Assembly (NCBI GenBank): GCA_022824405.1
Contig: JAJDZZ010000005.1
Location: 2,160-66,159 of the forward strand
Length of the DNA stretch: 64,000 bases
Origin: Opitutales bacterium
GTDB taxonomy: Bacteria; Verrucomicrobiota; Verrucomicrobiia; Opitutales; UBA2995
Direction: 5' to 3'
Positions 3,661 to 62,604 of this stretch are shown piece after piece (the stretch's first letter is position 1; the number at the start of each line of letters is the position of its first letter). Made by a program: the position numbers and the translations under genes. The notes beneath the pieces were generated by a model. That model searched no databases and was not told the origin of the DNA. It saw nothing but the letters and a program-made list of their open reading frames with translations.

Positions 3661-3820
3661 ACAAATGGTGGACTTTTTCGAGGATGGAATTTTTTAGGGG
3701 TGGGATTAACCACAGAGAACTCAGAGAGCACAGAGCTAATCTGCGGTTAACCCAAAGAAAATTTTTTGTGTTTATTGTGCCTTTTGTGGTTTCCTCTGGG
3801 TGAGCTTGGAGAGAGGAATT

Positions 3821-5161
3821 CTAGGGGTGAAGCACTTTCCAGCGGCGGGCTTTCATTTCGAAAACCGGCAAGGCGCCTGGGGTCAAGGGATACAAATTAA
3901 ACCGCAACTGGAAAGCTTGGCGCAATTTTTCCCGGAGTTCCTCGGTGGGATCTAGGCCCTCACCCGCCGCTTCGCGCCACCCTCTCCCAGTAGGAGAGGG
4001 ACCTATTCCTTCTCCCTTTGGGGGAAGGTCAGGTTGGGGGTTGCTACGCAATTCGAACTTTATGGAAACCTCGGCCATGGTTTTCCGCCGATCGACCTCA
4101 ACCCGGTATTCGCCGATACCGGATACCGAGCGAACCACCGCCTCGACCGCGCTGGGGTAGAGGTTCACGCCCCTGACGCATACCATATCATCGGCGCGTC
4201 CGATTATCCCTCCATCCAGAGCAAAGGCTGCCGGATCTTCTCCGGGTAAGCTCATCTTTTTGACGATGTCCCCGGTGCGGTAGCGAAGCAAAGGGCACGC
4301 TTCCCGGCCCAAAGTGGTCAGGATCAATTCGCCCTCCTCCCCTGCCTGGACCGGTTCATTGGTGTGGGGCTTCATCACTTCGCAATAAAATGCCTCGTGC
4401 ACGATCCGCAATAGGTTGGGCCGTTCCGTATCCCCGTAAGTCACCGGACCGGTCTCGGTCATTCCATGGTGGTCGAGCACACGCGCCGGACACCATCCCT
4501 CTTCAATTCTCTGGCGAATTTCCGCTACACTGCCACCCGGTTCACCGCCCACGATTATCCATTCCACCCCGGATTTCGCCAAGTCCGCTCCTTCGGCATG
4601 GGCTATTTCCAGCAGCCTCAAGGCATAGGTTGGGGTGCAACAGAGGAATCGCGGTTTCTGGGCCATTAAAAACCGCAGGCGATCGACACTGCCCATGCCC
4701 CCGGCCGGAATGGCGCAAATGCCCAGTTGGGTCGCCGCGTCAAAAGCCGACCAAAATCCCAAAAAAGGCCCAAAGGAAAAAGTGAACAAAGCGGCGTCGC
4801 CCTCCCTGGCCCCGGCCGCCCGCCAAGTCGGTTTCCATCCGTTGACGACCCATTGCCAACTCTCCCGGGTATCGAGCCAGATCAAGGGGTTCCCACTGGT
4901 ACCGCTGGTTTGATGATACCGGGTGTATCGCTTCAGGGGGTAGGTCAGAACCGAACCGTAGGGTGGATGCCGGGCCTGATCCTCTACCAACTCCTCTTTG
5001 GTGGTAAACGGCATGCGGTCACCATAATCCTGCCAGGAGGAAAACCCCTCCGAACCTCCCGCTTCCGAAAACTTCCGATGATAAAACCGGTTCCCCGGAA
5101 CGATCTGCCCGATCACATCGTTCAAGGATTTCAATTGCCGCTTCCGGAGCTCCATTGCCAA
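3821..5161 (-). CDS. Phenylacetate-CoA ligase (PaaK) / coenzyme F390 synthetase-family adenylating enzyme
   Basis: 446 aa with the HQTSGTSGNPL adenylation motif, YPSAVEAVV and a PaaK-like length and layout. It carries an extra Pro/Gly-rich segment near the C-terminus (see finding). Confidence 0.8.
   Translation of the reverse strand: MAMELRKRQLKSLNDVIGQIVPGNRFYHRKFSEAGGSEGFSSWQDYGDRMPFTTKEELVEDQARHPPYGSVLTYPLKRYTRYHQTSGTSGNPLIWLDTRESWQWVVNGWKPTWRAAGAREGDAALFTFSFGPFLGFWSAFDAATQLGICAIPAGGMGSVDRLRFLMAQKPRFLCCTPTYALRLLEIAHAEGADLAKSGVEWIIVGGEPGGSVAEIRQRIEEGWCPARVLDHHGMTETGPVTYGDTERPNLLRIVHEAFYCEVMKPHTNEPVQAGEEGELILTTLGREACPLLRYRTGDIVKKMSLPGEDPAAFALDGGIIGRADDMVCVRGVNLYPSAVEAVVRSVSGIGEYRVEVDRRKTMAEVSIKFELRSNPQPDLPPKGEGIGPSPTGRGWREAAGEGLDPTEELREKLRQAFQLRFNLYPLTPGALPVFEMKARRWKVLHP
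3955..4040. repeat. GC-rich palindromic element (ccctcaccc...ccctctcccagNaggagaggg type) lying in-frame inside the PaaK-like CDS
   Basis: The string ggccctcacccgccgcttcgcgccaccctctcccagtaggagaggga... shares the blocks ccctcaccc / accctctcccag / agaggga with the reverse complement of 5221-5254. A second imperfect inverted repeat follows: ccttctccc-tttg-ggggaagg. Confidence 0.6.
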
Positions 5162-5210
5162 GATTACTTTAAACCCCTACCTCTCCAAGGATCGAAAGAA
5201 TTTCCTAGTT

Positions 5211-5765
5211 TTAATTATCTCCCTCTACCTCTGGGAGAGGGTCGGGGTGAGGGTTGCCATGCATTTCCTGGGAGGGAACCGGGGCGGTTTTTTCAGCAGG
5301 GGGCGGCTTGAAAAGCATGATCAGGCAACCCCCGGTGGCAGCCAGCAGAATTCCCAGAACAAACTGCCATGGAACTGCCGTAACCCCACCTCGGGGCGGG
5401 TGCAGGGAAATGGCCACGGTGGCATTCACCATGGGCGCCCCGGCAAATACGATGGACATCACTGCGGCGGGAGAACCCTTTGCGCCGAAAGCCAATAAGG
5501 TTCCCAACGCGCCCACCGCGCCCAGCGTCCCGGCGATCAAGGACAACCAAAACCCCCTGGGGGATAGGGCGAGATTGCCCCCCTGGACTTTGAGCAGGAT
5601 TAAGGGAGCCAAAACAGCCACGATAAAATAGGCAATTCCCACCACCAGAAAGGCTTTGTAACGCCCGAACACGGGATCTCCCATGGCGAGATTTCCACTG
5701 TGCAGAAAGACTCCGTAGAGTCCCCAGCAAACCACGGTGATTAATGCAAAATAAATCCAATTCAT
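5211..5765 (-). CDS. Integral membrane protein, about 5 TM, possibly DMT/EamA-like; function unknown
   Basis: Hydrophobic ORF with a preferred start at MNWIYFALITVVCWGL (ATG 5765); the track ORF extends to 5807. The last about 12 codons (GNPHPDPLPEVEGDN) are encoded by the palindromic element at 5221-5254. Confidence 0.5.
   Translation of the reverse strand: MNWIYFALITVVCWGLYGVFLHSGNLAMGDPVFGRYKAFLVVGIAYFIVAVLAPLILLKVQGGNLALSPRGFWLSLIAGTLGAVGALGTLLAFGAKGSPAAVMSIVFAGAPMVNATVAISLHPPRGGVTAVPWQFVLGILLAATGGCLIMLFKPPPAEKTAPVPSQEMHGNPHPDPLPEVEGDN
5221..5254. repeat. GC-rich palindromic element, opposite orientation to the copy at 3955-4040
   Basis: Sequence ccctctacctctgggagagggtcggggtgagggt, with the internal inverted repeat ccctct/agaggg. 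Confidence 0.6.
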
Positions 5766-5901
5766 GGAGACCCAACTTATAGCCAAAGGGCCCGGAATAA
5801 AGGACAAATGTGAGGCGCCTCTTAGCGATCTCTGCGTGCTCTGCGAGAGTCAATTCCGGAATCCAGCGCCCATTCTTCCTTCTGACTTCTTCATTCTTCC
5901 T

Positions 5902-6348
5902 TCATTCGAGGTAGGTGCCGGTAAAATAATTGAGCAGGTTTTGCGCTTCGTTTTCGAAGGTATTAGACAACCAACGGGTGACGTCCCCAATGGAAACCAT
6001 GCCCAAAATGCGATCGTCTTCCACCACCGGGATATGGCGGTGCCGCTTCGCAGTCATGTGGGCCATGGCTTCATCCACGGACAAGCCGGGAGGAAACGTA
6101 TCCACCTCCCGGGTCATCACTTCCGTAACCGGGGTGGTGGCCGGAGCAAGACCAGGTACTACCACTCTTCTGAGCACATCGCGTTCAGTAAATATTCCCA
6201 CGATTTTGCCCTCATCGAGAATCAGCATGCATCCGACCTGAAGCCGGTTCATTTCTTTGACCGCATCGAGCACGGAGGCTTCGGGATCAATGGAGAAGAC
6301 CTCGGAAAATTCTTTTTCGGCCAGAAGGGTGGAAATGGATACCTTCAT
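5902..6348 (-). CDS. CBS domain-containing protein
   Basis: 148 aa with tandem CBS-pair signatures (GCMLILDEGKIVGIFTERDVLRRV ... HIPVVEDDRILGMVSIGDV). Confidence 0.85.
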   Translation of the reverse strand: MKVSISTLLAEKEFSEVFSIDPEASVLDAVKEMNRLQVGCMLILDEGKIVGIFTERDVLRRVVVPGLAPATTPVTEVMTREVDTFPPGLSVDEAMAHMTAKRHRHIPVVEDDRILGMVSIGDVTRWLSNTFENEAQNLLNYFTGTYLE

Positions 6349-6457
6349 TTTAACGACTATATCAATATGGAACTTAACAACCCTTCGTCAAAAGGGTTTC
6401 AAAAGAAAGCTGTAAAGTCATTTCAATGCGACAAGAAAACGGTGAAGGGCTCGAAAT

Positions 6458-7330
6458 TCACTGGGAATATGGTAAAAAGCTGCCCGATTTGTAGCCATCC
6501 CTGAGTTCGCTCCCCCCTTCAGGATCGATAATGTAGGCGCCAAGGTTTGAATCGGTCGAACAAAGCCTATCCACTTCCGGTGGGCTCATCATCATGAAAC
6601 TCGTGGAAAGAGCATCGGAGTGGGCCCCGATCCCAGCTATTGCCCAGGCCCGACGCGAAGTCTCCAGAGCCGTCTGCGCGTCCAGGTTGAGGATGTGAGA
6701 ACCCTTTACAAACAAACCTGAGCCGCTCAAGGAGCGGTTTTCCAGCCGTATTTCCCATGGGTCCCTATCGGCGCCGATGGTCACCGGCCAACCCGGGCCG
6801 ACTCCATCGTCTCCCTTTGCCACCACAGTGCTGGTCCCCGAATGAATGAGGACCCCGGCGATTTCCCAATCCGCCAGCATATTTACCACCAAGTCCAGGG
6901 CATGCCCCTTTCCAATACCTCCCAGATCCACCTCGATATCGGGATACCGGAATCGGACGGTGCAATACTCCGGATCCATCTCCATCCAGGAACCGACGGG
7001 GAGCTTACCGCCAAAACGCTCCAAATCCATAAAAGAGGCAAAGGCGATCGAGAACACCCCTCGCGTCAGGATTTCCAAGTCCATGGCATGTAGGAGACAA
7101 TTCCAGCATTCAGCGCTGACCCGCACCGCTTCCCCCCCGGCCCGCTTGTTCAAGATATCGATGTCGCTGCCTTCGCGGAATTTGCTCAGGATGGTTTCAA
7201 GGCGGTCTATTTCCCTGAAGGCTTCAGCGGCCGCTTGCCGGGCGTATTGCTCATCGGCCTCCCGGATATGAATTTCGACCCAGGTGTTCATGGCCTCGTG
7301 CCGAAATGAATGCACCTCTCCCATTCCCAT
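6458..7330 (-). CDS. apbE: FAD:protein FMN transferase (ApbE family)
   Basis: Carries the ApbE-type motif DLGGIGKGHALD. It is 290 aa and is adjacent to the upstream gene (stop/start 7330/7331). Confidence 0.8.
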   Translation of the reverse strand: MGMGEVHSFRHEAMNTWVEIHIREADEQYARQAAAEAFREIDRLETILSKFREGSDIDILNKRAGGEAVRVSAECWNCLLHAMDLEILTRGVFSIAFASFMDLERFGGKLPVGSWMEMDPEYCTVRFRYPDIEVDLGGIGKGHALDLVVNMLADWEIAGVLIHSGTSTVVAKGDDGVGPGWPVTIGADRDPWEIRLENRSLSGSGLFVKGSHILNLDAQTALETSRRAWAIAGIGAHSDALSTSFMMMSPPEVDRLCSTDSNLGAYIIDPEGGSELRDGYKSGSFLPYSQ

Positions 7331-8911
7331 TCAGTCGGTTGAAAATTGCCGCTCCCAAAGATCTTTTTCAACCGCGACCAGGAGCAGGACTCCATCCCGC
7401 AGGCCGCGCAATTCGGTTGTATACAATGCTTCATCGATCCGGGCGATTCCCTCGGCATCGCTCAGGGAAAAAATCCGGACGGGGGCATCCGATTGCGGCG
7501 GCGGATTTTCCCAATAACCAACGGCGCTGAAGTGGCGCAGATACCAGGGAAGCGGCCAATACTCCTCGGCCATGATATCGATACGCATCCCCAAGCCATC
7601 GGGATGATAACCTGCCAACGTCTCGATTCGATCCACCAATTGCAGGATATCGGCGGAAGTATGACTGTAAGCGTAGGGATTGCGTGAATGGGTGGAATAA
7701 CGAAAAGCCAATAGATGGGATTGGTAAAGGGAATGACCCAGGCATAGAATCAATAGTGCGGTCCATCCAAAGCGCATCCATGAAGTCGAGAGTTTCTCAA
7801 AGGCGAAGGCCCATCCAATCCCGGCCAAAAGCATCCAACCGGCCAGAAAATTTAGCGCCAACCAAGGGGTTTTGTAGCCAATAAACGAATAAGCCGCGGT
7901 GGTCGTGAGAACATACACGGCCAGGAAGCTGTGAAAAGAATAACCGGATTCCCCCCTTCCCTGCCCTGGGTAGCCATCCGGAGCACGGTTCCGGTGTTTG
8001 AAGGAAACGCATATCCCGACCGATCCCAACAAAAGGACCCAGCCCTCACCCAAGTAACCCAGAGCGGTCCCCCGGCCCAGGATCAGGCCCAGATAATAAT
8101 AGAAGGGTTTCTCATGGCCCGGCTCAATCGTGTAGCTGAAATAGGTGAGGATGGAATCGATCGGACCGCGCGGATGGGTAAAAAATGCCGAGTAAAAAAT
8201 TACCGATACACCAAGGGCGCAAAGGACGGCTGCCCCCAGGATTCTTGAACCATTTCCGGAAATAATCCACCGCGCTTCCTTCTTTAAATTCTTACCCAAA
8301 ACGGCAATCAGGGCCAAACCGGCCGCAGCCAAAACGATAAGCGCCGTTTCGCGAGTGGCGTGCAGTAAACCCAGCAGACCGCCCGTCCACAAAGCCCACT
8401 TCAGATCCCGCTTCTCCAACAACCGCCACAGGAAATAAAGAAATATCAGGGTAAAAAGAACGAACAGCATCTCATGGATGAAGTACCGGCTGAAATAGAT
8501 GAAACCGGGAGAAACCGCCATCAGGGCCAGAGCCACCATACTGGCGCGGAATCCGATCCAGCGTCTGAACAGGCTCACCGAGAAAACTCCCAAAACCCCG
8601 GCAAGCGCCGTCAGCCACCGCAAACTCACCTCACTGAGACCGTCACCCGTGATCACATTGTAAAGTCCGGTGGAAAGCAGGGCCAGATAACCAAGGGACG
8701 GACCATGATAATGAGTCGGATCAAAGGGGATCGATTCTCCCTCCAGCATCCGGTGAACCATCACTCCGTTCACCGCTTCATCCGCATGCATGGGTTTCTC
8801 CTCCAGATGGAAGAAGCGCAGGAAGAGACCGGCCCAGATCAGCAGACCAAAAATGACAAAGGCGCTAACCCGCATCGGTCCTGAAATTTGTTTCGAGGGA
8901 CGGAAATCCAA
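7331..8911 (-). CDS. Polytopic membrane glycosyltransferase, ArnT/PMT (GT39/GT83-like) family
   Basis: 526 aa with more than 10 predicted TM segments. The N-terminal loop motif KPMHADEAVNG is typical of this family. Confidence 0.65.
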   Translation of the reverse strand: MDFRPSKQISGPMRVSAFVIFGLLIWAGLFLRFFHLEEKPMHADEAVNGVMVHRMLEGESIPFDPTHYHGPSLGYLALLSTGLYNVITGDGLSEVSLRWLTALAGVLGVFSVSLFRRWIGFRASMVALALMAVSPGFIYFSRYFIHEMLFVLFTLIFLYFLWRLLEKRDLKWALWTGGLLGLLHATRETALIVLAAAGLALIAVLGKNLKKEARWIISGNGSRILGAAVLCALGVSVIFYSAFFTHPRGPIDSILTYFSYTIEPGHEKPFYYYLGLILGRGTALGYLGEGWVLLLGSVGICVSFKHRNRAPDGYPGQGRGESGYSFHSFLAVYVLTTTAAYSFIGYKTPWLALNFLAGWMLLAGIGWAFAFEKLSTSWMRFGWTALLILCLGHSLYQSHLLAFRYSTHSRNPYAYSHTSADILQLVDRIETLAGYHPDGLGMRIDIMAEEYWPLPWYLRHFSAVGYWENPPPQSDAPVRIFSLSDAEGIARIDEALYTTELRGLRDGVLLLVAVEKDLWERQFSTD

Positions 8912-10293: not shown

Positions 10294-10476
10294 ACCATGC
10301 TACTTAAATGATCGGGTTAAAATTCTGCCCCAAGAAATGGTAGAGGCCAATAACTTTTCCGCCGCCGCCGCTATCCTCGATACTCGATGCTGGGTTCCTT
10401 TCAGGGATATGGAGATCCTGAGCAATCGCGGCGTAAAGCCGCTCTTACAATTAATTATGTTTTTTCTTCTCTTCTA

Positions 10477-10603
10477 TCGATCACGATTACGATGATTTTC
10501 CTTTCATCCCTATTCATTCATCCTTCATCCTTCATCCTTCATCCTTTCTTGGCCCCTCCGGCGCCCACTGAACACCGATCTCTGACTACTGACCACTGAT
10601 TCC
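10477..10603. repeat. Mosaic repeat cluster (modules G, H, E, J) ending 2 nt before the ATG of the GT4 gene
   Basis: Modules read directly: tcgatcacgattacgatga; (ttcatcc)n at 10503-10544; ttggcccctccggcgcc at 10549-10565; cactgaacaccgatctctgactactgaccactgattcc at 10566-10603. Confidence 0.85.
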
Positions 10604-10605
10604 TC

Positions 10606-18832: not shown

Positions 18833-18871
18833 AAATGTATCAAACCATAGCCGACATGCACCTTGGCAAAT
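18833..18871 (+). repeat. Left copy of the 39-bp direct repeat flanking the PIN/RHH cassette
   Basis: aaatgtatcaaaccatagccgacatgcaccttggcaaat matches aaaggtatcaaaccaaagccgaaatgcaccttggcaaat at 19634-19672 in 36 of 39 positions, at an offset of exactly 801 bp. Confidence 0.9.
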
Positions 18872-18925
18872 TGACACCCGCTTTAACTACGATCCATCGG
18901 TCTTTCCCTTTGGCTGAAAAGCCTG

Positions 18926-18962
18926 TTGACATTGACATGATACCAAATGCGGTATCATATTA
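18926..18962 (+). promoter_or_regulatory. Candidate promoter with operator palindrome for the PIN/RHH operon
   Basis: Overlapping ttgaca hexamers (18926-18931 and 18932-18937), a 7-6-7 palindrome tgatacc-aaatgc-ggtatca (18938-18957), and tatcat / tattaa -10-like hexamers immediately before the ATG at 18963. Confidence 0.4.
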
Positions 18963-19379
18963 ATGATTGTTATTGATACTAATGTGATGGTGTCTGCGCT
19001 TCGGTCGAGCCTTGGCGCGTCACATTTGCTTGTTCAAAGTATAGCGGAAAGGAAATTTGAATACGCCATTTCGGCAGCTCTGATTTTTGAGTATGAGGAC
19101 GCGATTAAAAGAGCAATGGATTGTATTTTATTAACGGACAAGGAATTGGACCTATTTCTGGATTCAATAGTAGCTCTGGGAACCACCTTCTCACCCTTTT
19201 TTCTATGGCGACCCTTCCTTTCTGACCCTAAAGACGATTATGTGCTTGAACTGGCAGCGGTGTCCCGATCCAAGGCAATTATCACTTACAACCAAAAGGA
19301 TTTCAAAGGCATAGAAAAATTTGGAATTCAGACTTTGCCTCCAAAAGTTTATTTGCAAAAGAAAGGATTAATTCAATGA
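18963..19379 (+). CDS. PIN-domain toxin (PIN_3 / TIGR00305-like)
   Basis: N-terminus MIVIDTNVMVSAL, with acidic residues in DPKDDYVLELA and ITYNQKDF. It is 138 aa, and its stop overlaps the next start in an ATGA. Confidence 0.8.
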   Translation: MIVIDTNVMVSALRSSLGASHLLVQSIAERKFEYAISAALIFEYEDAIKRAMDCILLTDKELDLFLDSIVALGTTFSPFFLWRPFLSDPKDDYVLELAAVSRSKAIITYNQKDFKGIEKFGIQTLPPKVYLQKKGLIQ

Positions 19380-19612: not shown

Positions 19613-19633
19613 TTGTTTGCGAGACCGCTTAAG

Positions 19634-23018: not shown

Positions 23019-23035
23019 TCCGGATTTACCACAGA

Positions 23036-23088
23036 GAACTCAGAGAACACAGAGATTATTTGTGATCGTGATCGATTGAAGGGGAGGA
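23036..23088. repeat. Mosaic repeat modules A and G
   Basis: ttaccacagagaactcagagaacacagag followed by tgtgatcgtgatcgattg. Degenerate A-, F- and B-like copies continue up to 23190. Confidence 0.8.
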
Positions 23089-23198
23089 ACTAACATCTGA
23101 GGACGCAGAGGGCCCAGAGTTTCCGCTTAAATCTGTGAATACCATCTATTTGAGTCCTTTGTGCATTTTGTGGCCAAACTTCCCTCAATTGTATAATC

Positions 23199-23278
23199 TT
23201 TGTGCCTTTGTGCCTTTGTGCCTTTGTGCCTTTGTGCCTTTGTGCCTTTGTGCCTTTGTGCCTTTGTGCCTTTGTGCC
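23199..23278. repeat. Perfect 10-copy tandem array of the 8-bp unit tttgtgcc (module B)
   Basis: Read directly from the sequence: 80 bp without a mismatch, located between the convergent hemJ and TonB-receptor genes. Confidence 0.97.
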
Positions 23279-23295
23279 TAGGCGAGATCCCATTC

Positions 23296-25152
23296 CTAAA
23301 ACCGATAGACTGAGCTGACAGAAACCTGCCGGGGACTGGCCGGCACGGAAGGGATTTCTTCAAAGCGACTGTCCCAAAAGTTTTCCACGGCCAGGCTGAA
23401 TTCGAGTCCTTCTACCGACTCGGGAAAATAAAAAAGGCCCAAAGACGATATCACCGCCTCGTCCACTCCGTTGGACCGAAGGGAGTTTTTCTCCTGCATG
23501 CGCAGCTCGTTGTCGGAACGAATTTCCAATCCGGGCAAGAATTGGTAGATTAATGCCAAGGTCAGGCGATGCCGGGCAAAATTGAGCGCGTAAAAACTGG
23601 CGTCGACCAGCGCGTCACCGTAATCCTCGGACTTGGAAAGAAGGGTGTAACCGGCCACCACTCGGCCCCGATCAAAGGAGAATTGGCCCAGCAGTTCCAC
23701 CCCGGTGGTTTCAATGTCCACGTGGTTTGCCGTGCGCCCGAATACCCCTTCGGTATAGGTCCAGTCGACCAAATCCCCGTCATCCCGCACAAATGCCGCG
23801 CCTTGAAATACATAGCGCTCCCCTTGGGTCCGGTAACCCACTTCCATATTCCGGGATGTCTCCCGTCCAAGGTTCTGATTGCCCCTGAAGAGTCCGCCAC
23901 TGGGATTGGAGGCGATGGCGGTGTACCCCGGCACCTGAGTCGCTTCAGAAATGTCCAGGTAAACCTGCCAGGATCGGTCCCTGGAAACCGGAGCCTGGTA
24001 GGTCAGATTAAAGACGGGGGAGGTATTACCGGATCCGCGGTTGTTGTCATCGCGAATCACCCCACCCGAAACCGTCCACTCCCCGTCACCCGAGCCATCG
24101 AATGAGGTCTCTGCCATAGCTCCAAATTTCAAATAGGAACGATTCATGAAGTCTCCAAACGTGAGCGAGGTCGATTCAATGGTGTCATCCACCCACTCCA
24201 CTTTCCCCGTCAGGAACCAATCATGGAGCAGCCAGAATCCTTCCGCCGCCAAATCCGCTACCCTGCTCTCATGCTCGAAGGGATTGAACGCGCCCGGATT
24301 GCGGCGATCGAACTCGTAATCGTCCTTATGCCGCCGGTAATAACCGCTCAACTGCAACCCGAAGTCTTCGCCTTCAATGGAATGATTGAGGAATAGCAGG
24401 TTTGTCTCCAGGTCCTCGGTCTCCGGTACCCCGAAAGGGGTGTACATATTGGGCCATCCAAAAAATTTTGTCTGATAACCATAGAAGAAATCGGTCTGAG
24501 ACCGGTCATTGGATACCTGGAACCTTCCGCTGATACGGTCGAAGAGATGATCTCCATTGGCAATGGTGCCATCCGATTCGGAGTGGGCTACCTCCACGTC
24601 AAACCCGTAGTTGCGATCTTCGGCTCCAACCGTATGGGCGCCGTAGGCCCGCCCGAAAAACAGACCATCCTCACCCAAACCAAGAGCCAGTTCCTGCAAC
24701 GGCCGAACCGGTTGCCAACCGAATTGTACCGAACCGACCCCGGAATTGAAACCGGCAAAGGCGTTCTCCGACCCGGTGAGGATGCTGGGTGGAGAAATCA
24801 TGTTGGGCGCCACGGGAATCTCGGCGAAGTAATGCCCGGTCTGCGGATCGAACAGGGTAGCGGCGCCCAGCATAAAACCGGTATTTTCAAAGATACCGCC
24901 TCGAATGGTCACATCACCCTGACTCTCTACGGAATTCCGCGACTGCACGTCAACCAACGGCTCAAATTTCAGGGAGGATACCGGCATGCTGAAAGTGGAA
25001 AGGGACTCCTCCAATGCAATGCGATGGCCCAAAGTTTCATGCGGAGCCAAATGGATCAATGGCAAATCGGAATCTTCCTCCTGAGAGAAGAGTCCCCATT
25101 CGATACCGGGGCTCGCCATTGCGATCAGGGTTATAAGGGGCCTGAGTTCCAT
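23296..25152 (-). CDS. TonB-dependent receptor-like outer-membrane beta-barrel
   Basis: Signal peptide, plug-like segment (VESQGDVTIRGGIFENTGFMLGAATLFDPQTGH), long alternating beta-strand pattern and a C-terminal aromatic residue (...VSSVYRF). Confidence 0.7.
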   Translation of the reverse strand: MELRPLITLIAMASPGIEWGLFSQEEDSDLPLIHLAPHETLGHRIALEESLSTFSMPVSSLKFEPLVDVQSRNSVESQGDVTIRGGIFENTGFMLGAATLFDPQTGHYFAEIPVAPNMISPPSILTGSENAFAGFNSGVGSVQFGWQPVRPLQELALGLGEDGLFFGRAYGAHTVGAEDRNYGFDVEVAHSESDGTIANGDHLFDRISGRFQVSNDRSQTDFFYGYQTKFFGWPNMYTPFGVPETEDLETNLLFLNHSIEGEDFGLQLSGYYRRHKDDYEFDRRNPGAFNPFEHESRVADLAAEGFWLLHDWFLTGKVEWVDDTIESTSLTFGDFMNRSYLKFGAMAETSFDGSGDGEWTVSGGVIRDDNNRGSGNTSPVFNLTYQAPVSRDRSWQVYLDISEATQVPGYTAIASNPSGGLFRGNQNLGRETSRNMEVGYRTQGERYVFQGAAFVRDDGDLVDWTYTEGVFGRTANHVDIETTGVELLGQFSFDRGRVVAGYTLLSKSEDYGDALVDASFYALNFARHRLTLALIYQFLPGLEIRSDNELRMQEKNSLRSNGVDEAVISSLGLFYFPESVEGLEFSLAVENFWDSRFEEIPSVPASPRQVSVSSVYRF

Positions 25153-25916: not shown

Positions 25917-26203
25917 TGGACAAATCCCCTGAAACGGTTCCCCTTTTTGCCATGGGAAAATCCACCAAACAACCATTCCACTTTGGCAACCCATTGGTAA
26001 ACCTTGTCTTTACCGCATTGGCCTTCCTGTTTTTTCTCTGGATCCTTCGACCCCATGTTCCGGCCCAAAGCGAGCTCTACCGCTGGATTTTCGCAACCTT
26101 GCCGGCCACCGCATTGACCCTCACCTTCTACCTCTGCCTGGCCATGTACCGGGTGACGGTCAACGACCATAGGAAGAGGCACAAAGGCACAAAGAAAGGC
26201 TGA
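25916..26203 (+). CDS. Possible small 2-TM membrane protein (uncertain)
   Basis: The GTG start overlaps the HAD stop by 1 nt and there are two hydrophobic helices. The last about 10 codons (HRKRHKGTKKG) are encoded by reversed module B, so the 3' end may be fortuitous. Confidence 0.3.
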   Translation: MDKSPETVPLFAMGKSTKQPFHFGNPLVNLVFTALAFLFFLWILRPHVPAQSELYRWIFATLPATALTLTFYLCLAMYRVTVNDHRKRHKGTKKG

Positions 26204-26358
26204 AGGAAGAAGGCTAAAGGCTGAATAGGTAGCCCGGATGTCTCACGAAATCCTGTGCGTCCTGTTCATCCATGTTTCATTTTCGATCACGATCACGATA
26301 AATTACTTCGTGCCCCTTCGTGGATCAAATTCCTCATTCCTAATTGGCGCCGGAGGCG
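26178..26358. repeat. Mosaic repeat cluster (B-rev, H-rev, F-like, G, B-like, D, E)
   Basis: Modules read directly: ggcacaaaggcacaaag; ggctgaaggaagaaggctaaagg; tcgatcacgatcacgata; aaattcctcattcctaatt; ttggcgccggaggcg. The D/E part contains the tatC stop codon. Confidence 0.85.
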
Positions 26359-31769: not shown

Positions 31770-31862
31770 TTCTTAATTGGCGCCCCTCGGCGCCTCCCCC
31801 TCCCCCTTTGTGCCTCTGTGCCTTTGTGCCATCTCGCCTTGGCGAGATCCCATTCCTAAAAC
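31770..31862. repeat. Mosaic repeat cluster (D/E, B, C, D)
   Basis: Modules read directly: ttcttaattggcgcccctcggcgcc; ctttgtgcctctgtgcctttgtgcc; atctcgccttggcgagatcc; cattcctaaaac. The last module contains the sulfatase stop codon at 31856. Confidence 0.9.
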
Positions 31863-33528: not shown

Positions 33529-33536
33529 ATAGAAAC

Positions 33537-36796: not shown

Positions 36797-37063
36797 GTGA
36801 ATCAACCGGCCCTTTTGAGTCTTTTGGGCCATCTCGCCTTGGCGAGTTCCCATTCCTCATTGGCACCCCTAGGCGCACCTTCCTCCTATGTGCCAGACCT
36901 GCTTGGCTGCGTGGCTACGGCCAACACCCGCGAGGAACTGCTGGAGGAGATCCGGGAAGCCATCGAGTTTCATATTGAAGGTATGCTCCAAGACGGCGAA
37001 TCTATCCCCGATCCTCAGGCTACCTCCGAGGTTGTGGAAGTTTCCGCAGTAGCTGGGACCTGA
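36797..37063 (+). pseudogene. hicB: hicB-like antitoxin remnant whose 5' part is replaced by mosaic repeat modules
   Basis: From about 36884 the ORF reads YVPDLLGCVATANTREELLEEIREAIEFHIEGMLQDGESIPDP, which is the HicB N-domain core. The residues before that (LGHLALASSHSSLAPLGAPSS) are encoded by modules C-D-E at 36831-36878. There is no hicA partner and no C-terminal DNA-binding domain. Confidence 0.55.
36812..36878. repeat. Mosaic repeat cluster (B-like, C, D, E)
   Basis: Modules read directly: cttttgagtcttttgggcc; atctcgccttggcgagttcc; cattcctcatt; ttggcacccctaggcgc. Confidence 0.8.
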
Positions 37064-37065: not shown

Positions 37066-37153
37066 CACTCCATTTCTTATCCGTGGTCCATTCCCATTCC
37101 CAATTCTTCATTCCTCATTCCTAATTGGCGCCGTCAGGCGCCTCTGTGGTTTC
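37066..37153. repeat. Mosaic repeat cluster (I/F fragments, D, E)
   Basis: Modules read directly: ccactccatttcttatccgtggtcc; cattcccattcccaattcttcattcctcattcctaatt; ttggcgccgtcaggcgcc. Confidence 0.85.
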
Positions 37154-45627: not shown

Positions 45628-45716
45628 GATTTAATTTCGATTCGCGAGCGGGTATGCGGACAGGAGAATTGACGCTCACGAAGAGTGCCAAAAACGTAGA
45701 AAGGGGAAAAAGAAAA

Positions 45717-46076
45717 AACCACAGAGGACTCAGAGGGCACAGAGTTTCTTAGGTAAAAACATGGATGAACAGGATGGACGGGATAAATAGCGATAAAAGG
45801 CACAAAAACCACCAAATTCCTAATTCCTCATTGGCGCCTCCGGCGCCTTCTCCTTTACGTTCCTCAGCGCTCTTTGCGAGAATCCCTCCCTCATCCGTGC
45901 TCATCCGTATAATCTGTGGTTTTTCTCTCCACTCCCTCACTCCATCACTTCATTACTCCTTTCCTTTCGATCACGATTAATCTCGGTCCCTTTGTGCCTC
46001 TGTGCCTTTGTGCCTTTGTGCCATCTCGCCTTGGCGAGATCCCATTCCTAATTCCTAATTGGCGCCCTCGGGCGCC
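45717..46076. repeat. Largest mosaic repeat cluster (order A, F-rev, B-rev, D, E, K, F, I, G, B, C, D, E)
   Basis: All modules were read directly. Examples: aaccacagaggactcagagggcacagag (45717-45744), ttggcgcctccggcgcc (45831-45847), tcgatcacgattaatc (45967-45982), ctttgtgcctctgtgcctttgtgcctttgtgcc (45990-46022), atctcgccttggcgagatcc (46023-46042), ttggcgccctcgggcgcc (46059-46076). Confidence 0.9.
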
Positions 46077-47344: not shown

Positions 47345-47495
47345 TTCTCTCGCAATGCTCGCAAAGAACCACAAAGGCTTCCCCTGTGAGGAAGTATTTA
47401 GGAATTTACCACGGATTACACGGATGGCCACGGATATTGGATACAGACCACTGAACACTGGTCTCTGATCACTGAACACTGGCGCCGGAGGCGCC
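47345..47495. repeat. Mosaic repeat cluster (K-rev, B-rev, D-rev, F-rev, J, E)
   Basis: Modules read directly: ttctctcgcaatgctcgcaaagaacc; accacaaaggc; tttaggaatttaccacggattacacggatggccacggat; gaccactgaacactggtctctgatcactgaacactgg; ggcgccggaggcgcc (47481-47495). Confidence 0.85.
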
Positions 47496-50229: not shown

Positions 50230-50357
50230 CCCACTGATTTCCTCTCGCCAAGTCCGCTAAGAAGAAATGAGGAATTGAAAATCCTCTTGGCGTTTTTGGC
50301 GAGCTTTGCGAGAGTCTCTTTCCTATCCGTGCTAATCTGTGAAATCCGTGGTTAAAT
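50230..50357. repeat. Mosaic repeat cluster (J fragment, K, D-rev, K-rev, F)
   Basis: Modules read directly: cctctcgccaagtccgctaag; gaaatgaggaattg; ttggcgtttttggcgagctttgcgagagtctc; ctatccgtgctaatctgtgaaatccgtggttaaa. Confidence 0.85.
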
Positions 50358-53049: not shown

Positions 53050-53202
53050 CCTCTCGCAAAGCAGAAGAGGGAACCACAAAAGGCACAAAAAACGCAAAAT
53101 AGGGGCCTATAGCGCCTCTAAAGGAGGGGGGACATTCCTGTCCCCCACCGGCGAAGCCGGAACCATCCGTGTTTCCGTGGTTAATTCTCGATCGCGATTA
53201 GG
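53050..53202. repeat. Mosaic repeat cluster (K, B-rev, E-like, L hairpin, F, G)
   Basis: Modules read directly: cctctcgcaaagc; accacaaaaggcacaaaaaacgcaaaa; ggaggggggacattcctgtccccca (53123-53147); ccggcgaagccgg; aaccatccgtgtttccgtggttaattc; tcgatcgcgatta. Confidence 0.85.
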
Positions 53203-55364: not shown

Positions 55365-55533
55365 GGGAAATCGGGGTTAATGTGGGTGAAAAGGTGATCA
55401 AACCGTTTTCCGGGACGATCGCATATGCAAATGAGTCTGGTGCAATTCGGTAAGGGCCAAAAAAATTTTGGTCAATGCCAATGCGCCTCAGAATCATCCC
55501 CTCTTGCCCTGCATGCTTGAATTCTTGGAAGAA

Positions 55534-55854
55534 TTAACCACAGAGGACTCAGAGGGCACAGAGAGAGAAGACAAAAATCGTGATCGTGATCGTGATCGTG
55601 ATTAATCTCAGTATGTCAGAATCTCTCTCCCTTCTCCCCAATTCCTAATTCCTAATTCCTAATTTCTCATTCCTCATTGGCGCCCCCGGCGCCTTCCCCC
55701 ACTCCATCACTCCCCCACTCCATCACTCCAACATTCCATCACTCCAACACTCCCTTCCCCACTTTGTGCCTTTGTGCCTCTGTGCCTTTGTGCCTTCTCG
55801 CCTTGGCGAGATCCAATTCCTCATTCCTCATTCCTAATTGGCGCCATCGGCGCC
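55534..55854. repeat. Mosaic repeat cluster (A, G, D, E, I, B, C, D, E) ending exactly at the lpdA stop codon
   Basis: Modules read directly: ttaaccacagaggactcagagggcacagag (55534-55563); aatcgtgatcgtgatcgtgatcgtgattaatc; (attcctMa)n; ttggcgcccccggcgcc (55677-55693); cactccatcactcc repeats (55694-55754); ctttgtgcctttgtgcctctgtgcctttgtgcc (55762-55794); ttctcgccttggcgagatcc; ttggcgccatcggcgcc (55838-55854). Confidence 0.9.
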
Positions 55855-57252
55855 TCAAATATGTATGGCCTCGCCCTCGATGGCGGCTGCCGCCTCCATA
55901 AGGGCCTCACTCAGGGTCGGGTGAGCGTGAATGGTTTCCTGTACCTCCCGAGGGGTTGCCTCCAAGTTCATGGCCAGGGTGTATTCCCCGATCAACTCGG
56001 TGGCCTCGGCGCCGATGATGTGGACCCCTAAAATTTCTCCATCGTCCTCTGCGGAAATGATTTTTACGAAGCCCTCCGAGGCATTGGATGCCACGGCTTT
56101 CCCCGAGGCGGTAAAGGGAAACTTTCCCACCTTATAGGGCAGGCCGGATTCCTTGAGCGCTTGCTCCGTCCGGCCAATGGAAGCCACCTGGGGCAGACAA
56201 TACGTGCAGGCCGGAAATAAAGTGACGCGTTTGGGAATCCCCGCCCCGAACATTCCGTCCACCGCCTGGATCGCTTCATAGGTGGCCACGTGGGCCAACC
56301 AGGGAGGACCGATGATATCCCCCGCCGCGTAAATCCCCGGAACATTGGTCTGATAACGTTCGTCTACTTTCAGGTAGCCGCCGGATTTCTCCAACTCCAC
56401 TTCTTGCGAAAGGGCACCGTCCAGGTTGGGATCGACCCCAATGGCCGACAACACGGCATCGACCTCCACCGATTTGACCTTGGCTCCTTTGACCAGATCG
56501 GCCCGGACCACGTCTCCCACCACCGCCAGGTTTTCCACCTTGGTTCGGAGGAGAATCCCGATCCCCTGGCGTTTAAAGGAACGGCCCAGATACCGGGATA
56601 CCTCTACGTCTTCCATGGGTAGTAGTTGCGGTAGTATCTCAACAAGAATCACCTTCGAACCGAGGGCATTGAAAAAGTAGGCAAACTCCACCCCGATAGC
56701 GCCGGCGCCAACCACCAGCAATCGATTTGGCCGGTCCTTCCGGGCCAGGACCTCACGGGAAGTCATCACTTTCCTTCCATCCGGTTCCAATCCCGGCAGA
56801 GGGCGCATTTTACACCCGGTGGCCAAAAGTATGTTACGGGCATTGAGCAAAGATCCTTTGTCCTCACCCTCCCTGACCATCACCTTCCCGGACCCGACGG
56901 CTTCCCCCCGGCCGCGCAGGTGGTCGACCTTGTTCTTGCGGAACAAATATTCTATCCCCAGGGCCATTCGATCCGCAACGGCGCGGGACCTGCCCATGAC
57001 CTTTTCGAAATCATAACCGACCTTTTCCGCACTGAGTCCGAAATCGGCGGCATGCAGCATCTTCTGATAAAGCTCGGCGCTCTGCAGCAAGGCCTTGGAT
57101 GGAATGCAGCCCCAATTCAGACAGGTGCCTCCGGGGCGCTCCATCTCCACGCAAGCCACTTTCTTTCCCAATTGCCCCGCGCGAATGGCCCCGGCGTAGC
57201 CGGCGGGACCCCCACCGATGACGACCAAATCGTATTCAATTCTTTCTGCCAT
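55855..57252 (-). CDS. lpdA: Dihydrolipoyl dehydrogenase
   Basis: FAD-binding motif VVIGGGPAGY, redox-active disulfide GGTCLNWGCIPSK, and the C-terminal HAHPTLSE. Confidence 0.95.
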   Translation of the reverse strand: MAERIEYDLVVIGGGPAGYAGAIRAGQLGKKVACVEMERPGGTCLNWGCIPSKALLQSAELYQKMLHAADFGLSAEKVGYDFEKVMGRSRAVADRMALGIEYLFRKNKVDHLRGRGEAVGSGKVMVREGEDKGSLLNARNILLATGCKMRPLPGLEPDGRKVMTSREVLARKDRPNRLLVVGAGAIGVEFAYFFNALGSKVILVEILPQLLPMEDVEVSRYLGRSFKRQGIGILLRTKVENLAVVGDVVRADLVKGAKVKSVEVDAVLSAIGVDPNLDGALSQEVELEKSGGYLKVDERYQTNVPGIYAAGDIIGPPWLAHVATYEAIQAVDGMFGAGIPKRVTLFPACTYCLPQVASIGRTEQALKESGLPYKVGKFPFTASGKAVASNASEGFVKIISAEDDGEILGVHIIGAEATELIGEYTLAMNLEATPREVQETIHAHPTLSEALMEAAAAIEGEAIHI

Positions 57253-58121: not shown

Positions 58122-58130
58122 AGCTGGCTT

Positions 58131-58480
58131 ACTCTCGCCAAGATCGCAAAGCTCGCCAAGGGATCCGGCTTCGCCGGAACAAAAGTTAACGGAGGGGGGA
58201 CATTCCTGTCCCCCAACAATTACGGTAAACGGGTGGGGAAGCCCAAAAGGCGCCCACGGCGCTCCCCTCCCCCATTCCACATTCTTCATTCCTAATTCCT
58301 AATTGGCGCCGCAGGCGCCTACCCATCCGTGTCCATCCGTGTAATCCGTGGTTAATCATCTTTCCTCATCTGCGCTAATCTGCGTCATCTGCGGTTCATC
58401 TTCTCCCCAATTCCTCATTCCTAATTCCTCATTCCTCATTGGCGCCCCCGGCGCCTTTCGTGCCTCTGTGCCTTTGCGCC
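58131..58480. repeat. Mosaic repeat cluster (K, L hairpin, E-like, D, E, F, F', D, E, B)
   Basis: Modules read directly: actctcgccaagatcgcaaagctcgccaagg; ccggcttcgccgg; ggaggggggacattcctgtccccca (58191-58215); ttggcgccgcaggcgcc (58303-58319); catccgtgtccatccgtgtaatccgtggttaatc; catctgcgctaatctgcgtcatctgcggttcatc; ttggcgcccccggcgcc (58439-58455); tttcgtgcctctgtgcctttgcgcc. Confidence 0.9.
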
Positions 58481-59809
58481 TTTTTTAGTCAACCGTTCCT
58501 TCAGCTCCTTCCAATAAGCGAGCCGTTCCGCAATAAATTTTTCCCGCCCGGAACTGCCCGGAGTATAGAATTGCTTGTTCTCCAGCAGATAATCCTGTCC
58601 CGAAATGGCTTCGGGAAACTTGTGGCTGTAGAGGTAACCCTTGCCCAGTTCCAAGGCCTTGGCCGCCTTGCCGTGCCCATCTTTCAACCAGGTGGGCACC
58701 TCCTGGACGGGCCGGTTGGCGATTTCCCGTTTCACCTTCCCCAGGGCGACTGTGGCGGTATTGCTCTTCGGGGCTGTGGCCAGGTAAATGACCGCATGGG
58801 CCAAATTCAGTTCGCATTCCGGTTGGCCGATGAATTCGCAGGCTTCTTTGGCTGCCACCGCCAGTGGAAGAGCCATCGGGTCGGCCAGTCCCACGTCCTC
58901 GCTGGCCAGGATTATCAACCTCCTGGCGATAAACCTCGGGTCTTCCCCCCCTGCCAGCATTTTGGCCATCCAGTACAAGGCCGCGTCCGGATCGCCTCCA
59001 CGCATGCTCTTTATCAGTGCGGAAGCCGTATTGTAATGTTCATCTTCATCCGAATCGTAGCGGATCTGACGTTCCTGGGCAAAAGCTTGCAGATCGGCCG
59101 AGGTCAGTTCATGCCCCGGTTCCACACTCAGGACCAGGACTTCCAAGGCGTTCAAGGCGCGCCGCAAATCGCCATCGCACAGGCGGGCCAGGAACATCAG
59201 CGCCCCCTTACCCGCTTTTACTCCCGTGCCGCCCAAACCCCGCGATTTGTCCTCCATGGCCCGCTTCAAGGCCAGAATCACCTCCCCTTCGCTCAGCGGT
59301 TCGAGGTGGAATAGATGACTTCGGCTCAAAAGGGGAGCGATGATGTAAAACCCGGGATTGTGAGTGGTGGCGCCGATCAATCGGATATTTCCCTCTTCCA
59401 CATCGGGAAGCAGGAGATCCTGTTGCGCTTTGTTGAAGCGGTGGAGTTCGTCGATAAACAATACGGTGCGATTGGATGGATGCCGGCGAGCATTGTTCAA
59501 CTGCTGCCGAAGCTCCGCTACATTGGACATTACCGCGTTTATCCGCACGAATCGACTCCGGGTCGTTGCGGCGATGACATGGGCCAAAGAGGTCTTGCCG
59601 GAACCGGGTGGTCCCCAAAAAAGCAGACTTCCGAACCGATCCGTTTCGATCAGCTTGCGCAGCAATGAATGGGGCCTGAGCAAGTGCTCCTGGCCGATTA
59701 TTTCCTCCAATGCAAGCGGACGCATGCGTGCGGCCAAGGGTTTGACAGCCGGATTATTCCCCTCCGGTAATTGCGAATCAAAGAGAAAGGACTGAAACGA
59801 ATCGGCCAT
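58436..59809 (-). CDS. rarA: Replication-associated recombination protein A (RarA/MgsA AAA+ ATPase)
   Basis: Walker A LLFWGPPGSGKTSLA, Walker B VLFIDELHRFNK, and the MgsA C-terminal domain. The preferred start is MADSFQS (ATG 59809). The last about 16 codons (KKGAKAQRHERRRGRQ) are encoded by modules B and E. Confidence 0.95.
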   Translation of the reverse strand: MADSFQSFLFDSQLPEGNNPAVKPLAARMRPLALEEIIGQEHLLRPHSLLRKLIETDRFGSLLFWGPPGSGKTSLAHVIAATTRSRFVRINAVMSNVAELRQQLNNARRHPSNRTVLFIDELHRFNKAQQDLLLPDVEEGNIRLIGATTHNPGFYIIAPLLSRSHLFHLEPLSEGEVILALKRAMEDKSRGLGGTGVKAGKGALMFLARLCDGDLRRALNALEVLVLSVEPGHELTSADLQAFAQERQIRYDSDEDEHYNTASALIKSMRGGDPDAALYWMAKMLAGGEDPRFIARRLIILASEDVGLADPMALPLAVAAKEACEFIGQPECELNLAHAVIYLATAPKSNTATVALGKVKREIANRPVQEVPTWLKDGHGKAAKALELGKGYLYSHKFPEAISGQDYLLENKQFYTPGSSGREKFIAERLAYWKELKERLTKKGAKAQRHERRRGRQ

Positions 59810-61564: not shown

Positions 61565-61872
61565 TCGCACCTATCATGAAATCCGCTTACGAACTGGCCA
61601 TGGAGCGACTCAAAAACTCCGACCCATCCGAAACGATCCAACTCACCGATGATCAAAAGGAAGAGTTGGCCGATATCGACAACAAGTACAAGGCAAAGAT
61701 TGCCGCACAACGGATCTCCTTCGATCAAAAGATAAACCAAGCCCAATCGGATGGAGATTTTTCCAAGGCGGCCACTTTGCGGGAAGAATTGAGATCGACC
61801 CTGAAAAAATTGGAGAAAGACCGCGATTCGGCTAAAAACCTTGTCCGCGAAGGGAAACAGTTCAGGGGTTAA
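61561..61872 (+). CDS. Small coiled-coil protein of unknown function
   Basis: The ATG at 61561 forms an ATGA overlap with the comEC stop. The 103-aa product is charged and helical (MIAPIMKSAYELAMERLKNSD...). This is the only plausible part of the out-of-frame track ORF 60724-61872. Confidence 0.45.
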   Translation: MIAPIMKSAYELAMERLKNSDPSETIQLTDDQKEELADIDNKYKAKIAAQRISFDQKINQAQSDGDFSKAATLREELRSTLKKLEKDRDSAKNLVREGKQFRG

Positions 61873-61891
61873 CCTGGCACAGTGGTGCCGG

Positions 61892-62020
61892 GTAGTGTTC
61901 AGAGTTAAATTATCAGTGTTCAGTTGGCGCCAATCGCGAAATTGGTCCGCAGGCGCCTTTTGTATCTTCTATGGTTCCTCCTTCTTCTTAGCGTTCTTGG
62001 CGAGCTTTGCGAGAGTCTCC
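61892..62020. repeat. Mosaic repeat cluster (J-rev, expanded E, K-rev)
   Basis: Modules read directly: gtagtgttcagagttaaattatcagtgttcagt; ttggcgccaatcgcgaaattggtccgcaggcgcc; cgttcttggcgagctttgcgagagtctcc. Confidence 0.8.
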
Positions 62021-62440
62021 ATGTGGCATGTTCCGGTTGCGCTTGTAAACCATTCGTTGGAAGTCCTTCATGGACAATGGTTCGAGGACCCTTGCATAAC
62101 CTTTTTTTACTTCAGGCGAACGAATGGGTTTACCCGATTTCCACTTTTTTTTGTCCCAGGCCGACAATTCCCCCTGGGGTAGTTTAAGCGTTAGCTGAAT
62201 TTGGGCGACGGACAACAATTTGTCCCCGGGTCGTTTGGTCTGAGGAACCGGATTGCGCCAAGCCCGGTAGAGTTGGGGGATCGGCCTTTTCGGAGACGCA
62301 TCAGGAATTAGTTCTTTTGCCTTGAAAGCCATGCTCTGAAGCTCACTTCTTTGCGGATTCTCCGGCTTCAACTTTTCGACATCCCCGCTGACCTGACTCC
62401 CGGTCAGGAACAGGACCCCTATGCAAAAATACAACTTCAT
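61988..62440 (-). CDS. Possible secreted basic protein of unknown function
   Basis: The internal start MKLYFCIGVLFLTGSQVSG (ATG 62440) gives a signal-like N-terminus. The C-terminal codons run into module K. Coding status is uncertain. Confidence 0.4.
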   Translation of the reverse strand: MKLYFCIGVLFLTGSQVSGDVEKLKPENPQRSELQSMAFKAKELIPDASPKRPIPQLYRAWRNPVPQTKRPGDKLLSVAQIQLTLKLPQGELSAWDKKKWKSGKPIRSPEVKKGYARVLEPLSMKDFQRMVYKRNRNMPHGDSRKARQER

Positions 62441-62528
62441 TAGCCCGCTGGCGTCGGGGTTGGGGTCAGCCCTTGATTTTTGATATGTCCCCATATTGAA
62501 AATCCAGGCCTGACCCCCTGGCGGATAC

Positions 62529-62604
62529 CATTCCATCACTCCATCACTCCTCTCCATTCCTAATTCCTAATTCCTCATTGGCGCCACCGGCGCCCCCTGG
62601 CGCC
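62529..62604. repeat. Mosaic repeat cluster (I, D, E, extra ggcgcc arm) ending 1 nt before the stop of the ThyX-like gene
   Basis: Modules read directly: ccattccatcactccatcactcctctcc; attcctaattcctaattcctcatt; ttggcgccaccggcgcc; ccctggcgcc. Confidence 0.9.

Follow-up and report, generated by a model that had tools for sequence, protein, structure and literature searches.

What are the short repeats that fill the long intergenic spacers of an uncultured Opitutales bacterium, and what sets the direction in which they face? The question arose from a 64,000-nt stretch of contig JAJDZZ010000005.1 (assembly GCA_022824405.1, positions 2,160 to 66,159; hereafter the window), which has a GC content of 55% and negative GC skew throughout. 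An initial annotation had listed 16 spacers of this window as chains of 6-10-nt tandem units and small GC hairpins, lettered A to L and called modules here. We found that the modules belong to a repeat vocabulary shared within one close clade, that they are copied as blocks, turned over rapidly, and oriented with respect to the replichore. We read them, with about an even chance of being right, as a clade-specific, self-propagating population of non-coding repeats that would spread by direct block copying, slippage and turnover and would take its polarity from a replication-coupled step on single-stranded DNA (ssDNA).

All 16 spacers contained the described units on direct reading, and Tandem Repeats Finder (TRF) independently reported arrays in them. 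The commonest 8-mers of the window were B and D words, nearly all of them outside open reading frames (ORFs) and on a single strand. The B word CTTTGTGC occurred 20 times (19 non-ORF) versus 2 for its reverse complement, and ATTCCTAA occurred 16 times versus 1. Eighteen D dimers were present at up to one mismatch, every one on the + strand, versus 0.15 expected from shuffles, and GGCGCC-N4-GGCGCC was observed 4 times versus 0.59 expected. Of the 14 spacers that measure 200 nt or more, 10 carried arrays. On the curated gene map, the density of module words per kb was 22.0 for spacers but 1.46 for genes, which bears out the earlier statement that they are essentially limited to non-coding DNA. 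Hits inside genes were isolated 6-7-mers, at a density 15 times below that of the spacers. The gene map also agreed that modules are missing from the AT-rich toxin-antitoxin (TA) islets.

The building blocks themselves stood, but A, F, K and C are not the separate classes that had been drawn. A is an inverted F-type module, as TTAACC-(CACAGAG..)n is the reverse complement of (..CTCTGTG)n-GGTTAA, while K is a tandem of the 9-mer CTCGCMAAG and hairpin C consists of two K units placed head to head. The estimate of about a dozen blocks was too small, as the vocabulary is open, with 272 canonical 6-10-mers across the clade described below. The recurring chained trains proved real, with conserved junctions in B-C-D(-E), D-E and I-(G)-B-C-D-E. 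The B-C-D composite (39-71 nt) has five copies, at 23238, 31798, 36823, 45990 and 55762, and the copies at 45990 and 55762 are 92% identical over 71 nt with their unit variants in identical internal order. Other repeat families of the window are D-E (8-9 copies), A (5 copies) and K (3 copies), and without exception the window families are direct repeats. Hairpins number 10-11 (E), 4 (C) and 2 (L) per 64 kb, and RNA folding predicted two isolated GC hairpins with unstructured repeats between them. In the clade, a hairpin comes next at 141 of 193 D-array ends. The stem of hairpin E keeps its inverted symmetry through variants while the loops are free (GGCGCC/GGCGCC 80 times, GGCGCGC/GCGCGCC 14 times), and the 4 nt past it are T/C-rich (TCCC, TCTC, TTTT and others), with TAC-type tails in 4 of 141 and AATT on the D side.

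Modules recur well beyond the window. Genome contigs, one genome per species, were scanned with the D-E junction ATTCCTMATTGGCGCC, a 16-mer, which matched more than 107 stretches. Five or six Opitutales (Verrucomicrobiota) metagenome-assembled genomes (MAGs; sources OZ2198xx, CBDBFA01, CBDCNU01, CBDCML01 and JAABVD01) account for about 70 of these, and the others are single hits from unrelated phyla. At the DNA level, window genes share 83-97% identity with the syntenic loci of this clade (loci are numbered with the prefix L). Lpd, encoded at 55855-57252, is 88-93% identical within the clade; for the next relative found the figure is 76%, and for Opitutus terrae it is 67%. Modules outside the query (B, F, G, I, K and L) turn up again in about 530 kb of sequence from the five species; in 262 kb of unrelated loci, which have just the 16-mer in common, they are missing or nearly so. 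They are also present in loci fetched by protein, and so without module ascertainment (L113-L115, L118 and L119). TRF counted 132 arrays per 100 kb in the clade versus 51 in controls. In 660 kb there were 257 arrays of period 7, 128 of period 8 and 233 of period 9, periods 7 and 8 being about 13 times enriched over controls. TRF arrays fell outside ORFs in 626 of 716 cases; only 90 of the 716, and 6 of 299 arrays defined by pattern, lay inside ORFs, though ORFs make up about 76% of the DNA. The top canonical units (AATTAGG, AAAGGCAC, ACGATC, AATGAGG, ACACAGAGG and ACAGGATGG, among others) were each common to 5-8 of the 8 clade sequence sets. Recurrence elsewhere in the genome is therefore established and extends to at least five other Opitutales species. 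Neither the relative whose Lpd is 76% identical (GC 47%) nor O. terrae (GC 65%) has arrays at the syntenic loci, which hold only scattered single words, and the system is thus specific to one close clade. A scan of viral contigs gave four single chance matches, none with other modules. One short-read contig (L001, 8673 nt, from Logan SRR16351689) is 100% identical to the window and ends at 37103 and 45775, inside module-rich spacers on both sides, as expected for a dispersed repeat; the sequences being identical, it carries no copy-number information.

Nearly every module copy in the window runs in one direction, in agreement with the strand bias first noted. Across 69 sequences (68 clade loci and the window), net orientation tracked GC skew calculated from ORFs only (Spearman -0.47, p=4e-5) and not gene-strand bias (rho -0.09), so the bias is a replichore effect rather than one of flanking genes. 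In 70% of arrays the purine-rich strand of the modules coincided with the G-rich (leading) strand, and locus votes were 32 to 5 in the same sense (p=7e-6). Concordance with the replichore was seen in 17 of 25 head-on tandem spacers and in 48 of 64 co-directional ones. Orientation also flips along long contigs. In CBDCML010000004.1, the ratio of forward to reverse copies is 20:9 at 1.25 Mb but 0:17 at 1.28 Mb, with ORF skew moving from -0.011 to +0.097 and the flip at about 1.26 Mb, and in CBDBFA010000003.1 orientation switches near 0.9 Mb. TRF arrays of any unit showed strong purine/pyrimidine asymmetry, with the purine-rich strand favouring the G-rich strand (p=8e-8), and the preference survived dropping D, the unit used for ascertainment (p=4e-5). 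The asymmetry is mainly an excess of A over T, opposite in sign to the bulk AT skew of the window. Among the roles proposed earlier, a replication-oriented signal fits this polarity best.

Two other accounts of the orientation were discarded. The window alone suggested that it is set by the flanking gene (inverted B, D and F units at 47345 and in the left halves of convergent spacers), which the multi-species data refute. A circular skew test, in which the arrays would themselves create the skew, was rejected as ORF-only skew still correlates and the result holds without the D unit.

Comparison of orthologous spacers showed how the arrays change. At the sulfatase stop codon (window 31856), a D-C-B-E composite is common to the window and L118 (94% protein identity), with 3 and 2 B units, respectively. 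In L119 (91% protein identity), a 1-nt indel in the D unit shifts the sulfatase stop, so that the protein ends in KPAVLE* and not KPVF*, and the spacer that follows is a different mosaic of 525 nt. The divergent FeoA/sulfatase spacer has conserved ends in all three and a variable middle, which in the window is 169 nt long and module-free but in L118 and L119 reaches 422 and 791 nt, respectively. L119 also holds a multi-module unit of about 300 nt duplicated in tandem, with a further copy 1955 nt off, beyond a gene; all copies are direct and none is inverted. The spacer after lpd has 490 nt of modules in the window and 206 nt of other modules in L114, and is module-free in L115. In the MgsA/GST spacer (58131..58483), an E-D-f-F block of about 135 nt is extra in the window and missing in L113, which retains the neighbours of the block, including an E hairpin with an identical loop. 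Spacers S3 and S5 differ between species by whole blocks.

Two further observations concern these same spacers. A conserved palindromic box, GAGAATGGCTCTCAAT, lies beside feoA in the window (33368-33536), L118 and L119 and is possibly a metal-regulator site; module insertions in this spacer fall between the box and the conserved sulfatase-proximal end. In the MgsA/GST spacer, hairpin L is inverted between species at the orthologous position, its lpd-sense loop being GGAA in the window (58215-58235) and TTCC in L113 (about 8823-8840).

The individual spacers of the window illustrate how modules are combined and how closely they approach genes. All coordinates refer to the + strand and all assignments rest on direct reading, with additional evidence in brackets. 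The first spacer (3703..3753) consists of an A module, TTAACC followed by three CACAGAG-type 9-mers, facing an f unit with GGTTAA, giving an imperfect inverted pair bounded by TTAA (TRF, repeat family D6). It is followed at 5812..5907 by a K-like block, GCGATCTCTGCGTGCTCTGCGAGAG, and then (TTCTTCC)n (TRF, family D7 at 73%). The divergent spacer at 10477..10603 contains arrays of G, (TTCATCC)5 and J (CACTGAW) (TRF, gene map). At 23022..23303, A, G, (CTTTGTGC)10, half a hairpin C and a D unit follow one another (TRF, repeat families), and within this spacer the CTA of the D unit is the stop codon of the gene 23296-25152(-). The spacer at 26177..26358 begins with two inverted B units and purine-rich arrays beside a + gene and continues with H/F-like units, G, two D units and hairpin E (TRF, gene map), which at the spacer's end stands against the stop codon of the gene 26340-27278(-). 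At 31770..31862, an E - B x3 - C - D composite ends in a D unit that gives the stop codon of the sulfatase gene 31856-33367(-) (repeat families).

The HicB-like ORF 36797-37063 has a degenerate B-C-D-E train (36812..36878) read in frame at its 5' end (family D5, Pfam); the Pfam match begins at residue 31, and the first 30 or so residues are the composite. Genes for a ParE toxin (36239-36499) and an RHH-like antitoxin (36486-36707) adjoin this HicB-like antitoxin ORF. The next spacer, 37066..37153, contains I, F, four to five D units and hairpin E (TRF, families D3/D4). One of the longest mosaics, at 45712..46076, runs from A through inverted F/H/B arrays, D x2-E, a K-like block, F, I and G to B x4-C-D x2-E (TRF, folding, repeat families). 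Downstream of a tRNA-Asp gene, 47345..47495 contains K, inverted B/D/F units, a J array and hairpin E (TRF, gene map). The spacer at 50230..50357 is made up of K units facing either way and an F/f array with terminal GGTTAA (gene map, family D7), and that at 53050..53202 of K, an inverted B-type array, hairpin L, F with terminal GGTTAA and G (gene map, family I1). The train at 55531..55854 reads A - G x4 - D x5 - E - I x6 - B x4 - C - D x3 - E (TRF, folding, repeat families), its last E standing against the stop codon of lpd, 55855-57252(-). The MgsA/GST spacer reads K x3 - L - D - E - F x3 + GGTTAA - f x3 - D x4 - E - B-like (TRF, orthologue comparison). At 61892..62020, E-like palindromes are combined with inverted J units and with a K block that matches the copy at 50282 at 92% identity (family D7), and at 62529..62604 the train I x2 - D x3 - E, with a triple GGCGCC, ends 1 nt from the stop codon of the thyX-like gene 62606-63952(-) (TRF, repeat families).

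Elsewhere in the window, a gene for a PSCyt1/PSCyt2/PSD1 protein adjoins one for a DUF1501 protein. At 18833-19672 lies an AT-rich, module-free cassette with genes for a PIN_3 toxin (18963-19379) and a HicB-family antitoxin (19376-19612). Direct repeats of 39 nt on its two sides, 18833-18871 and 19634-19672, are 92% identical, and the arrangement looks like a recent insertion.

The modules were compared with known classes of repeat, several of which the initial annotation had already set aside. They are not CRISPR arrays, as units run head to tail without spacers, nor MITEs (transposable elements of the miniature inverted-repeat type), as the one inverted pair in the whole window bounds no block. 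They are also not terminators of the U-tract type, since terminator-like sites number 24 versus 26.5 expected and only one E hairpin qualifies. The suggested Rfam search (Rfam 15 covariance models, E<=1) matched two tRNAs and no module. The proposal that the modules are 3'-untranslated-region or termination elements was not supported, as orientation ignores the flanking gene, terminators are at chance level and array presence at orthologous spacers is not conserved. In addition, modules are not confined to gene 3' ends, since divergent spacers are filled as well (window 10294-10605, Aldose_epim/Thy1 in L113-L115, and FeoA/sulfatase in L118 and L119).

The closest relatives in architecture are repetitive extragenic palindromic (REP) sequences and the bacterial interspersed mosaic elements (BIMEs) that they form. 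Like these, the modules are short, many-copy and extragenic, combine GC palindromes with short motifs in a recurring mosaic order, lie mostly downstream of or between genes while overlapping some gene ends, are lineage-specific and variable among relatives, and occur in genomes that carry Y1/HUH transposases. REP superfamilies have been defined by Di Nocera et al., and GTAG REPs are reported as abundant in O. terrae (PMC3733652). Hairpin E lacks an adjoining GTAG/CGTC tag and so fails the defining feature of those superfamilies (PMC3733652), and the earlier exclusion of classical REPs holds. No REPtron was found in about 680 kb of clade DNA. Furthermore, the modules are mostly tandem arrays of 6-10 bp, which BIMEs lack, their copies are all direct where the REPs of BIMEs alternate in inverted orientation, and they are polarised by replichore. 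In the searchable literature on intergenic repeats of Opitutaceae and Verrucomicrobia we found no account of such a system, only the GTAG REPs of O. terrae.

In their units, the modules resemble the short tandemly repeated repetitive (STRR) sequences of cyanobacteria and the heptamers of Xanthomonas and Nostoc, the nearest precedent among tandem repeats. These heptamers (GGGAATC and GGGGA(C/T)T) are about 90% intergenic and show no leading/lagging preference in Xanthomonas, and the over-representation of heptamers in some bacteria has been ascribed to polymerase slippage (PMC4692102). The modules share with them tandem units of about 7 nt that are dispersed genome-wide, overwhelmingly intergenic, and variable in length and sequence among close relatives, and the purine strand of the D unit, (T/G)AGGAAT, resembles the GGGAATC type. 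The published families comprise one to three unit types in plain arrays, whereas the clade has hundreds, with periods of 6-10, chained with hairpins and copied as composites; unlike the Xanthomonas repeats, the clade modules do have a leading/lagging preference. FtsK-orienting polar sequences (KOPS) and Chi are similar in that polarity reverses between replichores and the leading strand is purine-/G-rich, but these are single 5-8-mers spread through coding and non-coding DNA, mainly within genes, and the modules are many-unit tandem arrays outside genes. A replication-linked orientation bias is known for the ssDNA transposons IS200/IS605 and IS91 (PMC3971601). The modules share with the IS200/IS605 family a fork-relative bias and hairpins as structural features, and related Y1 enzymes are encoded in the clade, yet they have no defined ends, internal gene or demonstrated enzyme.

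The initial annotation had seen no transposase, which is correct for the window but not for the clade. Searches by tblastn of the same clade DNA, about 3% of each genome, with IS200 and RAYT (REP-associated tyrosine transposase) query sequences identified two families of Y1/HUH (IS200-like, RAYT-like) transposase genes, so enzymes of ssDNA transposition do occur in the clade. The first is represented in L028 (6271-7185, on CBDBFA010000003.1) and matches Pfam Y1_Tnp at 50.8 bits and NCBIfam REP_Tyr_transpos at 70.7 bits, below the 80-bit cut-off of the latter. The gene lies inside perfect 20-nt inverted repeats, AAAGGGGTCAAACGCAAAAT (span 6207-7213). This repeat occurs 44 times in the clade DNA, mostly as MITE-like pairs of 81-96 nt, some of which abut B or K arrays, and was found neither in the controls nor in the window. 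MITE-like elements with termini of about 20-30 nt like those of the L028 transposase are present at 18 loci (e.g., L014 1930-2012, L051 5432-5527 and L086 3058-3153), with longer variants of 130-146 and 267 nt, and form a family separate from the modules. The second family (L100 3894-4880 and L021 5846-6814) has no flanking repeats. In L021, 5446-5637 encodes a 63-residue truncated transposase of the L028 type (60% identity over 58 residues), the rest of which is replaced by K/F-type arrays. Modules can thus overwrite dispensable genes, as in this truncated Y1 gene and the HicB-like ORF.

How, then, might such repeats arise and persist? Under the reading that we favour, blocks would be copied from spacer to spacer in direct orientation, arrays would lengthen or shorten by unit slippage, and whole blocks would be quickly gained, lost and replaced. 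Elements would persist only where genes are left undamaged, which would explain their accumulation at stop codons and in the middle of long spacers. The polarity would come from a replication-coupled step on ssDNA at the fork, for which template switching, or slippage combined with orientation-dependent array stability, are candidates, possibly with the help of a Y1/HUH enzyme. The earlier claim of a non-random, recurring syntax holds; that of a functional system rather than simple sequence stays a suggestion, and the rapid turnover favours selfish or neutral, mechanistically polarised repeats, in which any cellular role, such as protection of mRNA 3' ends by hairpins, would be secondary.

Several points weigh against this reading. 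Replichores were inferred from GC skew alone in 8-kb blocks and gene calls were based on codon usage, both of which are approximate; oriC and dnaA were not located in the clade loci, the negative dnaA search being uninformative; and the clade loci were picked through the D-E junction. The polarity is partial, at about 70% per array, and A and K tend the other way. Neither an element boundary nor a target-site signature nor a cognate enzyme could be defined for the modules, and hairpin E is without the GTAG that RAYTs cleave. The Y1 transposases have an unrelated 20-nt terminal repeat on either side, or none, and nothing found so far ties these enzymes to the tandem modules. Finally, spacer S3 keeps arrays in all four species compared and E-like hairpins stand at the lpd stop codon in two species, so that there may be some selection on arrays.

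Could each spacer instead have grown its arrays by slippage on its own, with no copying between sites and with words shared through chance or composition? Unit numbers do change between close relatives, and polymerase slippage has been invoked for bacterial heptamers (PMC4692102), but the explanation is contradicted by the composites of the window, in which identical multi-module junctions and unit-variant order recur at distant spacers, and by the copies of about 300 nt in L119. With the same units in at least 5 species and not in controls, and with 18 D dimers where shuffles give 0.15, we regard it as scarcely credible. A signalling role would make the modules oriented sites for a KOPS/FtsK-like translocase, a Chi-like signal or a nucleoid-protein array. 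KOPS, SRS and Chi words are purine- and G-rich, as is the leading-strand version of the modules, whose orientation switches with GC skew along contigs and whose units are common to several species. Known polar oligomers are, however, spread through genes, from which the module units are nearly missing, and hundreds of distinct units, polarity of only about 70% and fast turnover at orthologous sites make such a role very unlikely.

Two more specific mechanisms are each improbable to a lesser degree. In a strict REP/BIME scheme, hairpins E, C and L would be sites of a RAYT-type Y1 enzyme, moved as ssDNA on the lagging-strand template, and the arrays would be variable tails. The mosaic architecture with its fixed syntax, the preserved symmetry of the E stem, the orientation biased to the replication strand, the Y1_Tnp genes of the clade, one of which scores 70.7 bits on REP_Tyr_transpos, and the reported richness of O. 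terrae in GTAG REPs (PMC3733652) all agree with it. The missing GTAG/CGTC next to hairpin E does not, nor does the sub-threshold score; the L028 transposase has a different terminal repeat and its own MITEs, the second family has no flanking repeats, and no transposase gene flanked by E, C or L was found in the portion of the genomes covered, so that we consider this scheme a minor possibility. The modules could also be polar barriers to transcription, C/U-rich repeats and a GC hairpin acting as sites resembling Rho utilization (rut) sites or as weak intrinsic stops on head-on or antisense transcripts while co-directional ones, bearing the purine-rich form, pass. C-rich, G-poor unstructured RNA loads Rho, and in folding predictions the stretches of array between isolated hairpins lack structure. 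The polarity follows the replichore whatever the gene direction, the pyrimidine-rich strand is on the lagging side, hairpin E in that orientation often has T/C-rich tails (TTTT 13 times, with TCTT, TTTG and TTTC common), and an open vocabulary fits a constraint on composition rather than exact sequence. Without D, however, the GC skew of arrays shows no difference by replichore (-0.074 vs -0.021, p=0.38), the asymmetry being mainly A versus T, and several units (B and F) are not G-poor. Together with consensus terminators at chance level and array presence that is not conserved at orthologous spacers, this leaves the barrier doubtful.

Equally tentative is the idea that the modules are a replication-polarised non-coding element of unrecognised kind, either a strand-specific signal or the product of a replication-coupled process that writes repeats. 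If the former were true, C/U-rich tracts with a hairpin would halt transcription that runs against the fork, or the modules would be oriented sites for DNA machines; if the latter, an unknown process coupled to replication would write short repeats into intergenic DNA and copy them. Either would go beyond one more family of REP or simple sequence repeat (SSR) type.

For the self-propagating population that we favour, the modules widen the catalogue of bacterial intergenic repeats to an uncultured lineage of Verrucomicrobiota and join features so far described apart, namely BIME-like mosaic syntax, STRR-like units and IS200-like replication polarity. In practical terms, they fragment short-read assemblies and could act as high-resolution strain markers for the clade. 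They also reshape gene ends, supplying stop codons and overwriting termini, and their polarity offers a concrete handle on how such repeats originate and spread.

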